Assembly: GCF_029227855.1 (NCBI RefSeq)
Contig: NZ_CP074356.1
From: Escherichia coli
GTDB lineage: Bacteria; Pseudomonadota; Gammaproteobacteria; Enterobacterales; Enterobacteriaceae
DNA: 64,000 nucleotides
Reading direction: 5' to 3' (one strand)
In this document: in pieces, positions 17,733 through 22,402 of the stretch
Layout of the letters: every line of letters begins with the position of its first letter
Numbering within the stretch: the first letter of the stretch is position 1
The notes under the pieces: generated by a model
What the model was told of the DNA's origin: nothing
Seen by the model: only the letters and a program-made list of their open reading frames with translations
The model's database searches: none
Made by a program: the position numbers and the translations under genes

Positions 17733-17862
17733 ATGAATACTAACGTTTTTCGACTGCTCCTGCTGGGAAGCCTGTTCAGCCTTAGCGCCTGTGTGCAGCA
17801 AAGCGAAGTGCGACAGATGAAACACAGCGTCAGCACGCTGAACCAGGAGATGACGCAACTCA
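17733..17862 (+). pseudogene. yajI: 5' fragment of lipoprotein gene yajI interrupted by an insertion sequence
   Basis: Signal peptide plus lipobox (MNTNVFRLLLLGSLFSLSAC) and about 43 codons match YajI, then the reading frame runs into IS-derived sequence. Confidence 0.8.
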
Positions 17863-17905
17863 TTGACATCCTCCACGCCCTGAAGGACGTGGATCCCTGC
17901 TACGT

Positions 17906-19114
17906 TCAGGCTGTCGCCTGAATCATTTCGGTGGGTTCCTGCTTCAACGGGCGGCCTGACTGCACCATCTCTCCACAGGCAAGAACGGCGTGCCCCGCCG
18001 CTAAAATGTTACGAGCGCCATTTACATCGGCGTTCGCTGTATATCCACATACCTGGCATCTGAATTGACTTTGTGACAGGCGATTTTCTTTCGCTGTATG
18101 ACCACAGCACGCGCAACGCTGACTTGTGTACGCTGGCGGAACAGCAAGCACCTGACCGCCACTCCAGAGCTGCTTGTACTCAAGCTGGCGGCGCATTTCA
18201 TACCAGCCCTGATCCAGTATCGAACGGTTTAAACCTGATTTTGCCCGGACATTGCGCCCCGGCTGGCTGACCGTACCCGCTGCTGACTTTGACATGTTAC
18301 TGACCTTCAAATCCTCAATGACTATCATTGCGTGGTTTTTGCTGACGGTCGTTGTGACTTTATGAAGGTAGTCCCTGCGGATATTTGCGATACAGGAATG
18401 CAGTCGCTGTATTTTGCGTTTCTGCTTCTGCCAGTTGTTGCTGAATTTGACCTTGCGGCTTAACTGTCGCTGAAGTCTCGCCAGCTTCTTCTGGTTTTTC
18501 TGAAAACTGTTTACAGGCTCAAAGACTGTGCCATCTGACAGCGTGGCGAGTTTAGCCACGCCAGCATCCAGCCCGACCATTGATGCTGAAGGGTGAACCG
18601 GAGTTGATACTTCACTTTCTGTCTGAATACTGATGTACCACTTACCGCAGGACTGGCAGACCGTGACATTTTTCACAACACCCGTGACCTGACGGCTATT
18701 CCGGTAGCGCATCCAGCCAAGTTTCGGCAGAAAAATACGGCTGTTTTCCTGATCGAGCTTAACGCCCTGCGGGTAGCGGAATGCATCATTCTGTCCCCGC
18801 TTTTTGAATCGGGGAAAAGCAGCCCGCTTCCGGAAGAAGTTTTTGTAAACCCGCTCAAGGTCTTTCAGTGACTGTTGCAATGGCTGTGAGGGCGAATCTT
18901 TAAGCCATTGCGTTTCAGTGGCGTTTTTCCACTCAACCAGCCAGGAAGCCATTTTCCCGTAAGGGATGTATTTATTACCGGCCTCATGATTCTCATTCTG
19001 AAGCGCCAGAGCACGATTGAAAACGAAACGACATGCGCCTGCGAAGCGCCTCATTTCACGCTCCTGTTGACCACCGGGTCTTAACTGGAATTTAAATGCC
19101 TGTAGTCGTTTCAC
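17906..19114 (-). CDS. tnpB: TnpB (IS605 OrfB-family RNA-guided endonuclease), apparently intact
   Basis: 402 aa, GTG start; RuvC-like motifs [18 protein letters not shown] and [10 protein letters not shown] plus zinc finger CACCGH...CQVCG. Confidence 0.9.
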
Positions 19115-19121
19115 AGGCCAA

Positions 19122-19600
19122 ATGATACTTTGGTCTGTGAAAAAAGAAACCGATATCCGGCGTGGAAGGCATTGTGTTTTCCTGATGCATGTTCACCTGG
19201 TCTTTGTCCCAAATACCGACGCCAGATTTTTGACCATGACGCGACAGAAAAACCACGCACTTACTTTTCAGATGTATGTGCTGATTTTGAAGCTGAACTG
19301 GTTGAAATGGATGGCGAACCAGATCACGTCCATTTGTTAATTAACTATCCTCCCAAACTGGCGATATCCAGTCTGGTAAACAGCCTCAAAGGCGTATCGG
19401 GTAGGTGACTGCGACGAGATCGACCAGATATTGCAGTCAGGTATTACTACAAAGGCGTTTTGTGGAGTCCTGGCTATTTTGCCAGTAGCTGCGGAGGTGC
19501 GCCAATATCCGTCATCCGCCAATACATTGAACAACAGCAAACACCTGGTCAGGTGGAAAACCGCGCCTTATATCCCCGCCCTGAAGGACGGGGTTTTACG
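19122..19600 (+). pseudogene. tnpA: IS605-type tnpA (Y1 HuH transposase) remnant, disrupted by a frameshift and an in-frame stop
   Basis: HuH motif and downstream conserved region (HVHLLINYPPK...SLKGVSGR, then WSPGYFASSCG) split over reading frames with a TGA at 19406-19408. Confidence 0.6.
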
Positions 19601-19614
19601 GCGCACCGGATAAA

Positions 19615-21586: not shown

Positions 21587-21771
21587 GAAAAGTTACCTGG
21601 ATGAAATGTAGGGTTACGCGCAGTTTCCCAAGATGCGGAGATTTTCGCAATCTCCATACATCAATAAATATCCTCCGGCATAGCCGGAGGTTTTTCAAAT
21701 GCGCCTATAAGGCTCTCTTACCAGCCGCGCCCTAACAGGCGCACACGATCTGACATTTGCATCCAACTTCG

Positions 21772-22230
21772 TTACTTACGGCCCGTAAACGGGCTGCCCG
21801 GATAGGGAATCGATAACTGCTCTCCCATTTTATCCTCTTCAAGCTGGTGCTTTATGTAATCCTGTATCTTCGCCGTGTTCTTACCCACTGTATCGACGTA
21901 GTACCCTCTGCACCAGAACTCCCTGTTCCTGTATTTGAATTTCAAATCACCAAACTGCTCGTAAAGCATCAGACTGCTTTTCCCTTTCAGATATCCCATA
22001 AACCCGGATACGCTCATTTTAGGCGGGATCTCCACAAGCATATGGATATGATCTGCACAGCATTCAGCTTCCAGAATCCGTACGCTTTTCCACTCACACA
22101 GCTTTCTCAAAATACTGCCTATTGCTCTACGCTTCTCTCTGTAGAACACCTGTCTTCGGTATTTTGGCGCAAAAACTATGTGATATTTACAGTTCCATCG
22201 GGTGTGCGCTAAGCTCTTTTCGTTCCCCAT
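21772..22230 (-). CDS. tnpA: IS200 transposase TnpA (Y1 HuH tyrosine transposase)
   Basis: Product MGNEKSLAHTRWNCKYHIVFAPKYRRQVF...HIHMLVEIPPK...RGYYVDTVG recognised as near-identical to IS200 TnpA. Confidence 0.9.
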   Translation of the reverse strand: MGNEKSLAHTRWNCKYHIVFAPKYRRQVFYREKRRAIGSILRKLCEWKSVRILEAECCADHIHMLVEIPPKMSVSGFMGYLKGKSSLMLYEQFGDLKFKYRNREFWCRGYYVDTVGKNTAKIQDYIKHQLEEDKMGEQLSIPYPGSPFTGRK

Positions 22231-22234
22231 TGGG

Positions 22235-22306
22235 ACCCCCTTTTGATTTCTTGTTTGACACTTGCAGTTGCCAGACCGCAAGGTGTTTTAACAAATCAAA
22301 AGGGGT
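22235..22306 (-). promoter_or_regulatory. IS200 5' UTR stem-loop that sequesters the tnpA ribosome-binding site
   Basis: Inverted repeat arms at 22235-22255 and 22290-22306; the arm next to the start codon contains the Shine-Dalgarno AAGGGGG. Confidence 0.55.
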
Positions 22307-22373
22307 TTTAATAACTGGCTCAAAGCTGAAAGCTTTCCGGAACCCCCTGCCTAGCTGGGGGTTTTCTGTGCAC

Positions 22374-22402
22374 AAAAAAATCCCGATCTTCTGACCGGGA
22401 TT
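22374..22402 (-). terminator. rho-independent terminator (stem TCCCGATC/GACCGGGA flanked by A7 and T4), 22 bp downstream of secF; may be the IS200 left-end terminator
   Basis: Hairpin followed by a 7-nt U-run on the minus strand. Confidence 0.6.

Follow-up and report, generated by a model that had tools for sequence, protein, structure and literature searches.

Two hairpins near the ends of an insertion in the Escherichia coli gene yajI are very probably the left-end and right-end subterminal imperfect palindromes of IS609, used on the minus strand. Both lie in a 64,000-nucleotide stretch of contig NZ_CP074356.1, referred to here as the window, to which all positions refer. The element that holds them is IS609, a member of the IS200/IS605 family of the IS605 type with divergent tnpA and tnpB genes. 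The same two genes are also divergent in IS605 and are co-directional in IS608. IS609 in the K-12 annotation, the subterminal hairpins of the family, ωRNAs and a right-end hairpin with a UUCA loop are all already known, and as a discovery the presence of IS609 hairpins in yajI matters little. The contribution of the present check is corrective, in that sequence evidence is used to assign the active strand and precise boundaries of the element, along with its target or TAM (YTTAT) and its guide tetranucleotides. A literature search on the mechanism of IS609 and InsQ yielded only mentions at the level of annotation and one report in which no transposition was seen. With a predicted TAM, guide and set of ωRNA boundaries, the TnpB protein of E. 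coli itself (InsQ) becomes directly testable.

Identity and boundaries of the element

The element was delimited by comparison with the empty yajI site of K-12, the ends of the K-12 IS609 copy and uninterrupted yajI alleles, which place the junctions at 17862/17863 and 19609/19610. Occupied and empty sites at both yajI and ydcL/ydcO join exactly with no base gained or lost, and there is thus no target duplication. The ends, CCGGTG... and ...GTCAA, form no terminal inverted repeats. Along with these two properties, a tnpA of the Y1 HUH type, palindromes in the same orientation and specific insertion 3' of a target identify a member of the IS200/IS605 family. The tnpA of the yajI copy in ST2747 is named 'IS609 family transposase' by PGAP. 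The coordinates of all features are collected in Table 1.

The annotated IS609 of K-12 (mobile element 1503161-1504908) is 1748 bp long compared with 1747 bp here, and the two copies show 33 differences over 1748 aligned positions. In K-12, yncK corresponds to the tnpA pseudogene and insQ to tnpB. The ends of the two copies are identical (CCGGTGCG...GGATGTCAA), and they have in common the target TTTAT, a TGA in tnpA and a TnpB of 402 amino acids. They differ in location (yajI in the window, ydcL/ydcO in K-12), in the left-end stem, which is perfect in the window and has an A·C mismatch in K-12, and in an additional 1-bp deletion in tnpA that is found in the window copy and not in K-12. Of 5426 complete E. 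coli genomes, 5015 match IS609 and 340 have the yajI::IS609 junction; the element occupies ~11,000 places in these genomes altogether.

Table 1. Features of the IS609 copy in yajI, with window positions
Feature	Positions	Strand	Description and basis
IS609 insertion	17863-19609	minus (probable active, or top, strand)	1747 bp, in yajI
Target and predicted TAM	19610-19614	minus	5'-TTTAT, adjoining the left end; last four bases TTAT = C_L
Left-end leader	19594-19609	minus	CCGGTGCGCCGTAAAA, 16 nt; last 4 nt AAAA (19594-19597) = predicted left guide G_L
Left-end imperfect palindrome IP_L, tnpA side	19574-19593	minus	CCCCGTCC-TTCA-GGGCGGGG; folding, covariation, model R1
Right-end imperfect palindrome IP_R, tnpB side	17873-17892	minus	CCACGTCC-TTCA-GGGCGTGG; doubles as the final stem-loop in the ωRNA-like structure
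Predicted right guide G_R	17893-17896	minus	GGAT (GAAT in most relatives), directly 5' of the IP_R foot; by analogy
Right-end linker	17863-17872	minus	AGGATGTCAA, 10 nt; last 4 nt TCAA = right cleavage site C_R; almost invariant in 38 distinct relatives
tnpB (insQ)	17906-19114	minus	Intact ORF, 402 aa, RNA-guided endonuclease; NCBIfam guided_TnpB 383.8 bits
tnpA pseudogene	19122-19609	plus	Y1 HUH transposase; native stop lost, premature TGA at 19406-19408 and deletion of 1 bp near 19209
Predicted ωRNA scaffold	17863-18032	minus	Covers the 3' end of tnpB plus the right end; consensus fold, sub-threshold Rfam matches
Predicted ωRNA guide	17847-17862	minus	TGAGTTGCGTCATCTC, 16 nt, yajI sequence beyond the right end; position rule (PMC10055086)

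Structure, probable active strand and predicted cleavage sites of the ends

Read on the plus strand, the hairpins are CCACGCCCTGAAGGACGTGG at 17873-17892 and CCCCGCCCTGAAGGACGGGG at 19574-19593, each 20 nt long. The initial annotation had placed them 10-20 bp inside the junctions, and they are found there, at distances of 10 and 16 nt, respectively. A 14-mer common to both, CGCCCTGAAGGACG, occurs in the 64 kb only at the two hairpin sites when up to 2 mismatches are allowed (0.26 occurrences expected). Searches with this 14-mer and with covariance model R1 revealed no further ends of the IS609 type and no PATE-like solo hairpins in the window. The hairpins had been described as 5-bp stems carrying an identical 10-nt loop; the sharing of sequence stands, and the structure is replaced by a stem of 8 bp that carries the 4-nt loop TTCA, as indicated by folding and covariation. 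One stem position that is T·G on the minus strand reads as a C·A mismatch on the plus strand.

The chief support for these structures comes from relatives rather than from single-sequence DNA folding, which gave modest z-scores for the hairpins labeled left (-3.0/-2.9) and right (-1.4 to -1.95). Among relatives, which are not phylogenetically independent and in which the covarying region is partly coding, 95.6% of the stem cells pair on the tnpB side and 92.6% on the tnpA side (the latter across 22 distinct relatives), with compensatory changes, compared with ~45-60% in slid controls. For IP_R, the compensatory changes affect 5 of the 8 pairs. Both hairpins are matched in the same orientation by one covariance model, in agreement with the original proposal that they are subterminal hairpins of an IS200/IS605 element.

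The active strand is probably the minus strand of the window, which is the sense strand of tnpB. Covariance model R1 gives 66.4 bits (right end) and 24.3 bits (left end) on the minus strand, compared with 10.7 and 11.3 bits on the plus strand. Right-end stems read on the tnpB-sense strand contain 26 G·T and 4 A·C oppositions. The sequence 5'-YTTAT precedes the tnpA-side end at all four independent E. coli insertions (TTTAT in three and CTTAT in one), whereas the other flank varies. The hairpins had originally been assigned to the plus strand, and this assignment is reversed by the YTTAT target, an IS608-like geometry, the excess of G·T and the covariance scores. The plus strand was rejected as the active strand because its 5' flanks (CTCA, GATA, TGTG and TTTG) are unconserved, its spacing is reversed relative to IS608, A·C mismatches take the place of G·T pairs and its model scores are low.

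The target and the predicted left guide vary together in relatives, in which the target is TTAT or TTAC. As extracted, TTAT occurs with the guide AAAA 17 times and TTAC with AAAG 8 times, the exceptions being an ATAT guide (4 times) and TTAC with AAAA (once). Across 22 distinct left ends, the pair formed by the last base of the target with the guide is T-A in 13, C-G in 5 and another combination in 4. Five of the 22 break the rule, comprising four copies from Buttiauxella with the guide ATAT and the one TTAC/AAAA case. Uninterrupted yajI alleles with exactly TTTAT also exist, and the K-12 allele reads TTGAT.

The right guide is assigned by analogy. C-3 and T-4 of TCAA would be paired with the first two bases of GGAT, which correspond to G-35 and A-34 in IS608, and at the level of sequence the right end offers C-3:G and T-4·G. 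The window copy thereby requires a T·G pair, in contrast to the T·A available in most relatives, whose guide is GAAT. In IS608 the full right guide is GAAT.

The mechanistic paradigm for such ends is IS608 of Helicobacter pylori, in which subterminal imperfect palindromes lie on one strand and 4-nt guides lie 5' of each foot (PMC3201880). IS609 shares with IS608 a right cleavage site TCAA that is 10 nt 3' of the hairpin foot, the bases A and G directly 3' of IP_R and A and T directly 3' of IP_L, a cleavage site whose third base, an A, is left unpaired, and insertion with no duplication (PMC3201880). The target TTAT with guide AAAA in IS609 and TTAC with AAAG in IS608 follow the same pairing logic (PMC3201880). 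The two elements differ in hairpin sequence, in left spacing (16 nt in IS609 and 19 in IS608) and in right guide (GGAT in IS609 and GA.. in IS608) (PMC3201880).

IS609 is inserted 3' of 5'-TTTAT in yajI without duplication. By homology with IS608, a dimeric Y1 HUH TnpA would bind the two hairpins as single-stranded DNA and would locate its cleavage sites through base pairing with the four nucleotides just 5' of each hairpin foot, and not through the protein. On the left, TTAT, cut at its 3' end and located 16 nt upstream of the hairpin, would pair with AAAA. On the right, TCAA, likewise cut at its 3' end and located 10 nt downstream of the hairpin, would pair with GGAT.

TnpB and the predicted ωRNA

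The intact TnpB matches the ISDra2 TnpB structures 8BF8, 8EXA and 8H1J at an E-value of 7e-54. When it is aligned with 8BF8, D, E and D fall at the RuvC positions (GLDAG, IEDL and NADVN), and both CxxC pairs of the zinc-finger cysteines are present. The catalytic residues are numbered D191, E278 and D361. Activity of the protein and expression of an ωRNA would be expected by homology.

A second constraint is likely to act on the tnpB-side hairpin, which also forms the final stem-loop in a covarying ωRNA-like structure and would then serve two purposes. A consensus fold, likewise from non-independent relatives and a partly coding region, comprises 47 pairs, 24 of them with compensatory changes, and 95.1% of its cells are paired, compared with 38-47% in slid controls. 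IP_R is helix 8 of this fold. Folding of the window sequence by itself as RNA gave z = -1.48. The right-end hairpin would form the 3'-terminal stem-loop of a structured RNA of ~170 nt, which begins within the 3' end of the intact tnpB and runs as far as the boundary of the element. Such an RNA would be the expected guide RNA of TnpB (the ωRNA), with the adjacent yajI sequence as its guide and the same TTTAT as its TAM. Both the TAM and the guide listed in Table 1 are predictions from position rules. Since the hairpin is also the terminal stem-loop of this structure, TnpA need not explain its conservation.

A search against Rfam yielded minus-strand matches to HgcC (RF00062; 21.3 bits vs a gathering threshold of 50), sot0042 (RF02656; 17 vs 88) and RAGATH-18 (RF03064; 25.4 vs 44.9), none of which reaches the gathering threshold. 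In the HgcC match, the terminal hairpin and the GGAGGAxGUCA tail of the family align to 17863-17893 on the minus strand. RE-like hairpins with a UUCA tetraloop are found at the 3' ends of transcripts that overlap tnpB, termed sotRNAs (PMC4615843). The right-end hairpin of IS609 is of the same UUCA-loop type as the sotRNA and HgcC hairpins, with scores far below the gathering thresholds, and it accordingly does not belong to the curated Rfam families. As in the TnpB-ωRNA system of ISDra2 from Deinococcus radiodurans and in ISGst elements, a predicted structured RNA overlaps the 3' end of tnpB and finishes at the right end, and the TAM is expected to equal the target of the transposase (PMC10055086). 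Unlike those elements, IS609 would have TTTAT or YTTAT as its TAM, and its tnpA is divergent and, in the window copy, dead.

The inactive tnpA and alternative accounts of the hairpins

The window copy of IS609 cannot move itself. The initial annotation had called its tnpA dead, and the TGA and the 1-bp deletion are both seen (Table 1). In addition, the native stop, which is TAG in relatives, is CAG here, and the frame reads through IP_L into yajI. Once repaired, the gene matches NCBIfam transpos_IS200 at 146 bits, where the cut-off is 55, and carries the HUH motif DHVHLL and the tyrosine motif RQYIEQQ. No IS609 transpositions were recorded in K-12 mutation-accumulation lines.

Intact hairpins beside a dead tnpA had originally been read as a sign that the element could still be mobilized in trans. 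Two yajI copies of IS609 from different lineages differ at 15 of 1748 positions (0.86%), a divergence at which ~0.3 changes are expected per 40 nt of hairpin. Identity of the hairpins is therefore expected from the low overall divergence, hairpin conservation is uninformative about selection within E. coli, and conserved ends with a dead tnpA are by themselves no argument for trans-mobilization in this genome.

The native stop of tnpA is lost in every E. coli copy of IS609 examined, while TnpB and the ωRNA-like structure are intact in most. The same TGA, at codon 97, is found at three loci (yajI, ydcL/ydcO and ytfB/yjfZ), and both alleles of this codon occur at one locus across strains. An interim idea, that the shared TGA predates the yajI insertion and hence implies trans-mobilization, was withdrawn, given that the yajI copy in TUM14771 has Leu at this codon; with the codon polymorphic, gene conversion or recombination is equally possible. 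It is conceivable, if improbable, that recombination triggered by TnpB and the ωRNA, together with gene conversion between copies, has taken over from TnpA transposition in the inheritance and homogenization of E. coli IS609. Under this reading, the right-end hairpin would be retained mainly for its role in the RNA and the left-end hairpin simply through recency.

A rival account, which we consider decidedly unlikely, holds that the hairpins work on the plus strand and are preserved by ongoing mobilization of the tnpA-dead copy by a related TnpA in the same genome. The cis elements for such movement look complete, comprising the target, both guides, two perfect stems and TCAA, and IS605 elements lacking tnpA are thought to be mobilized in trans (PMC10055086). 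Other E. coli strains do have uninterrupted IS609 tnpA frames, and frames that encode Leu at codon 97 occur at 4480 places in 2531 genomes, so trans-mobilization is possible in principle in other strains; it is unsupported in this genome. Every strand test described above favors the minus strand. The proposed search for additional copies and a cognate tnpA was applied to a chromosome matching the window at 100% identity over 4781 nt. Only one other copy of IS609 is present, carrying the same TGA, and no IS609 transposase gene without the stop was found on that chromosome, where the ydcL/ydcO site is empty. Some chromosomes with yajI::IS609 carry no second copy of the element. Empty yajI alleles with TTTAT exist; the two that were examined, in THO-008 and Ecol_316, are ~2% divergent from the window in the left flank and were rejected as recent precise excisions. 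The hairpin identity expected from the low divergence and the absence of IS609 movement in K-12 also count against this account.

The only intact Y1 transposase nearby is the tnpA of IS200C (21775-22230), 2.2 kb away, and it might appear to be a source of activity in trans. IS200C (~21.66-22.38 kb), of the IS200 group, belongs to the same family, encodes a Y1 HUH transposase as its only gene and has hairpins at both ends. These hairpins, CCCCCAGCTAGGCAGGGGG and CCTCCGGCTATGCCGGAGG, are unrelated to those of IS609 and give no match to model R1, and the two TnpA proteins are 28% identical. Mobilization of IS609 by the IS200C transposase is accordingly judged unlikely.

It is highly improbable that the hairpins owe their retention mainly to a role as RNA or transcription signals, with the right end as part of the ωRNA and the left end as an intrinsic terminator of tnpA, despite the position of the right-end hairpin within a strongly covarying RNA-like structure, an intact TnpB beside a dead tnpA and the TTTTAC that follows the left-end hairpin on the plus strand. 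A scan for terminators, defined by a G+C-rich stem followed by 5 or more T within 8 nt, returned 10 terminator-like sites, and the plus-strand tnpA-side hairpin, with only four T in its tail TTTTACGG, is not among them; as the tnpA frame of E. coli IS609 also reads through this hairpin, a terminator role was rejected. The left-end hairpin, although situated outside the ωRNA, shares its inner stem and loop with the hairpin at the right end. Both hairpins score higher on the minus strand, which at the left end is antisense to tnpA. The covariation of target and guide at the left end is explained only by the TnpA mechanism.

The IS609 copy in yajI and its end hairpins

The hairpins lie in the E. 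coli neighborhood ribD-nrdR-yajI-tsx. Of 5426 complete E. coli genomes, 5015 have matches to the 1781 nt around them, the median being two matching places. Annotation at these matches names an 'RNA-guided endonuclease InsQ/TnpB family protein' together with a pseudogene, 'IS200/IS605 (IS609) family transposase', and in K-12 MG1655 positions 1503161-1504908 are annotated as 'insertion sequence:IS609', containing insQ and the tnpA pseudogene yncK. The hairpins are an already known kind of feature: IS609, IS608-type ends and ωRNAs (TnpB guide RNAs) are all on record. The boundaries of the copy in yajI were set by comparison with the empty yajI of K-12, with the ends of its annotated IS609 and with reconstructed unoccupied sites, and by the same comparisons target bases are neither duplicated nor lost; the depths of the hairpins inside the junctions follow from these boundaries. 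When the unoccupied site is reconstructed over 80 nt with ATAAAG as in the window (TTTAT on the opposite strand), at least 12 genomes have an intact yajI that matches it at 100% identity. The site is uninterrupted in 5080 genomes, and the yajI::IS609 junction is found in 340.

Window coordinates of the IS609 copy, its components and the neighboring IS200 element
Feature	Position	Strand	Description
IS609 element in yajI	17863-19609		1747 bp
tnpB-side hairpin (IP_R), CCACGCCCTGAAGGACGTGG	17873-17892		10 nt inside left junction
tnpB	17906-19114	minus	intact 402-aa ORF
tnpA	from 19122	plus	dead: TGA 19406-19408 and 1-bp deletion near 19209
tnpA-side hairpin (IP_L), CCCCGCCCTGAAGGACGGGG	19574-19593		16 nt inside right junction
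IS200C-type IS200 element	~21660-22380		between yajD and secF
IS200C tnpA	21775-22230	minus	intact, 152 aa, 2.2 kb from IS609

The initial annotation located both hairpins exactly and correctly named them IS200/IS605 end hairpins. Their common 14-mer CGCCCTGAAGGACG, the region's top direct-repeat family, occurs at these two places only in the 64 kb with up to two mismatches tolerated (0.26 expected); the hairpin observation is real and not due to chance. Relatives were collected by scanning a single genome of each species, which gave 80 related loci, many of them aligning through both ends. In these relatives the right end forms a stem of 8 bp closed by a tetraloop, TTCA or TTTA; in 38 distinct sequences 95.6% of cells pair, with compensatory changes in five of the eight pairs, versus 44-64% in slid controls. 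At the left end 92.6% of stem cells pair, and this stem is the more conserved of the two. The shared sequence originally described as a 5-bp stem with an identical 10-nt loop stands, and the description of its structure was incomplete: the 'loop' is three more base pairs and a tetraloop.

Active strand, target and comparison with IS608

The functional strand had initially been taken to be the plus strand, and the conserved target, the excess of G·T over A·C and the model scores all favor the minus strand instead. In E. coli, each of four independent insertions (in yajI, at ydcL/ydcO, at ytfB/yjfZ and beside an SRAP-domain protein gene) has 5'-TTTAT or CTTAT directly before the tnpA-proximal end (CCGGTGCG...) on the tnpB-sense strand, and the flank beyond the tnpB-proximal end (...GGATGTCAA) is variable. 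Members of the IS200/IS605 family insert 3' of a specific tetranucleotide, which is directly adjacent to the left end when read on the active 'top' strand (PMC3201880). Given this rule and the conserved pentanucleotide, the tnpA-proximal end is assigned from sequence as the left end (LE), the tnpB-proximal end as the right end (RE) and the window's minus strand as the top strand. The strand asymmetry of the stems agrees with the target evidence: right-end stems hold 26 G·T versus 4 A·C (91% versus 81% paired on the two strands) and left-end stems 19 versus 10. A covariance model of the right end scores 66.4 bits at the right end and 24.3 bits at the left-end hairpin on the minus strand, versus 10.7 and 11.3 bits for the same two hairpins on the plus strand, and has no further matches in the 64-kb window.

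Read on the minus strand, the layout of IS609 is a close mirror of IS608. The right cleavage site TCAA is located 10 nt 3' of the hairpin foot, with site and distance identical in IS608; for the left cleavage site the distance, 5' of the foot, is 16 nt in IS609 and 19 nt in IS608. The right hairpin is followed on its 3' side by A and G, equivalent to A-10 and G-9, which make base triplets in IS608; the left hairpin is followed by A and T, equivalent to A+42 and T+43 of IS608. Pairing in IS608 joins the fourth base of the cleavage site to the fourth of the guide. In IS608, T-4 pairs with the second guide base and the next base with the first, the third base, A, being unpaired (PMC3201880). Under the IS608 scheme, TTAT at LE fits with AAAA, and TCAA at RE fits with GGAT if one T·G is tolerated.

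Target and guide covary in the relatives: in the rows as extracted, TTAT is accompanied by AAAA in 17, TTAC by AAAG in eight and TTAT by AAAG in none. Three more rows obey the rule after correction of 1-2-nt boundary offsets; it is broken by a single TTAC/AAAA row and by four copies from Buttiauxella, which have ATAT. In 22 distinct sequences the last target and last guide bases are T-A in 13, C-G in five and other in four. The Buttiauxella copies (L022, L023, L025 and L027, loci in one B. warmboldiae genome) have target TTAC, and ATAT, which replaces AAAG 5' of the left hairpin, makes the flank an extended palindrome, GCCTTATAT-hairpin-ATATAAGGC. Enterobacterial-type IS609-like elements were also seen on very short contigs of two actinobacterial assemblies, Streptomyces mutabilis (L026; 2057-bp contig, 83% TnpA identity) and Herbiconiux daphne (L084; 672-bp contig, 79%), and probably represent contamination rather than horizontal transfer.

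A predicted ωRNA with the tnpB-side hairpin as its last stem-loop

The tnpB product matches NCBIfam guided_TnpB (383.8 bits) and ISDra2 TnpB structures (E 7e-54), aligns D, E and D with the RuvC catalytic positions and keeps both CxxC pairs. On the minus strand, the element's final ~170 nt overlap the tnpB 3' end and have a consensus of 47 pairs in eight helices (32 relatives), in which 95.1% of cells pair and 24 pairs are compensatory, with slid controls at 38-47%. Helix 8 is the tnpB-side hairpin, and the structure stops at the element boundary. A long-range helix is predicted between the near-invariant linker GGAUGU and upstream AACAUUU, with one-sided supporting changes only. The window's own fold of the region has z = -1.48.

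Gomes-Filho et al. described transcripts over tnpB 3' ends with an 'RE-like' UUCA tetraloop, also found in HgcC and in one PATE-derived RNA (PMC4615843). TnpB guide RNAs are known to extend over both the 3' end of tnpB and the right end, the target-adjacent motif (TAM) being the transposase target (PMC10055086). On the strength of the covarying consensus, these transcripts and the known guide-RNA position, the tnpB-side hairpin would have a dual role, as IP_R for TnpA in DNA and as the last stem-loop of the predicted IS609 ωRNA. Its guide is predicted to be TGAGTTGCGTCATCTC (17862 to 17847), with TTTAT as the predicted TAM.

An Rfam scan run with an E-value threshold gave sub-threshold hits only, all on the minus strand, and the gathering score for membership was not reached by HgcC (21.3 bits versus 50; its terminal hairpin and tail align at 17863-17893), sot0042 (17 versus 88) or RAGATH-18 (25.4 versus 44.9). 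The RAGATH-18 (RF03064) match at 17936-17979 coincides with helices 4 and 5 (CCUGUGGAG...GAAGCAGGAA) of the consensus, so that the family may represent a piece of TnpB ωRNAs. In the ydcL-side copy on a metagenome scaffold (L011), the right-end hairpin is mutated (CCTCGTCATTCAGGGCGTGG), the right flank is unlike K-12 and TnpB has 382 aa; this copy may be rearranged or chimeric.

Inactivation of tnpA and the proposed mobilization in trans

In all E. coli IS609 copies examined, the codon at window positions 19549-19551 is CAG and PGAP flags a 'missing C-terminus'; in relatives this codon is the TAG stop of tnpA. The frame (19552-19609) therefore crosses the left-end hairpin (peptide ALYPRPEGRGFTA) into the element's flank, giving read-through products of 168 to 254 aa. 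TGA replaces Leu97 in copies at yajI, ydcL/ydcO and ytfB/yjfZ (L003, L093, L095, L005, L007 and L011 compared), and Leu97 alleles occur at the same loci in other strains, with Leu (TTA) at 4480 places in 2531 genomes and TGA at 3373 places in 2726. The common TGA and the presence of both alleles at each locus suggest gene conversion between copies. An origin of the stop before the yajI insertion was considered and withdrawn, since gene conversion or recombination between strains explains the distribution at least as well. In strain TUM14771 (L095, yajI::IS609), tnpA has Leu at codon 97 and no stop or frameshift, and HUH reads HVN (DHVNLL), an alternative route to probable inactivation. A 14-nt inverted repeat at 19109-19142 (TTTCACAGGCCAAA/TTTGGTCTGTGAAA, 93% complementary, 6-nt spacer) covers the divergent starts of tnpB (GTG, 19114) and tnpA (ATG, 19122), 7 nt apart, and could be an operator or translational control element.

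The initial annotation read intact hairpins beside a dead tnpA as a sign that a related TnpA elsewhere in the genome could still mobilize the element in trans. Both observations hold, and the cis elements look complete from their sequence, but over 1748 positions the window's yajI copy and that of strain ST2747 show only 15 differences, so hairpin conservation carries no weight as evidence. Mobilization in trans within this genome is unsupported. On chromosome NZ_AP045174.1, which matches the window without a difference in the 4781 nt compared, IS609 is present at exactly two places; the proposed check for further copies and an intact tnpA yields a second copy, at ytfB/yjfZ with intact TnpB and both hairpins, whose tnpA has the same TGA. 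Its ydcL/ydcO site is empty (gctttttat|tatcggtttctg). The ST2747 and O169:H41-strain chromosomes have yajI as their sole copy, and K-12 mutation-accumulation lines record zero IS609 movement. The empty TTTAT yajI alleles examined as possible excision traces are not recent excisions, as their left flank is ~2% divergent from the window. A helper IS609 TnpA could exist in other strains, as Leu97 frames are common and uninterrupted read-through TnpA proteins are recorded.

The TnpA (Y1 transposase) of the neighboring IS200C element is 28% identical to IS609 TnpA; the hairpins at its ends, CCCCCAGCTAGGCAGGGGG and CCTCCGGCTATGCCGGAGG, bear no relation to the IS609 ones, and the IS609 hairpin model finds no match on them. 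Strains THO-008 and Ecol_316 are without this element, with yajD and secF 128 nt apart, and ~137 nt present in both (their locus positions 7667-7803) are missing from the window at ~21234, between tsx and yajD.
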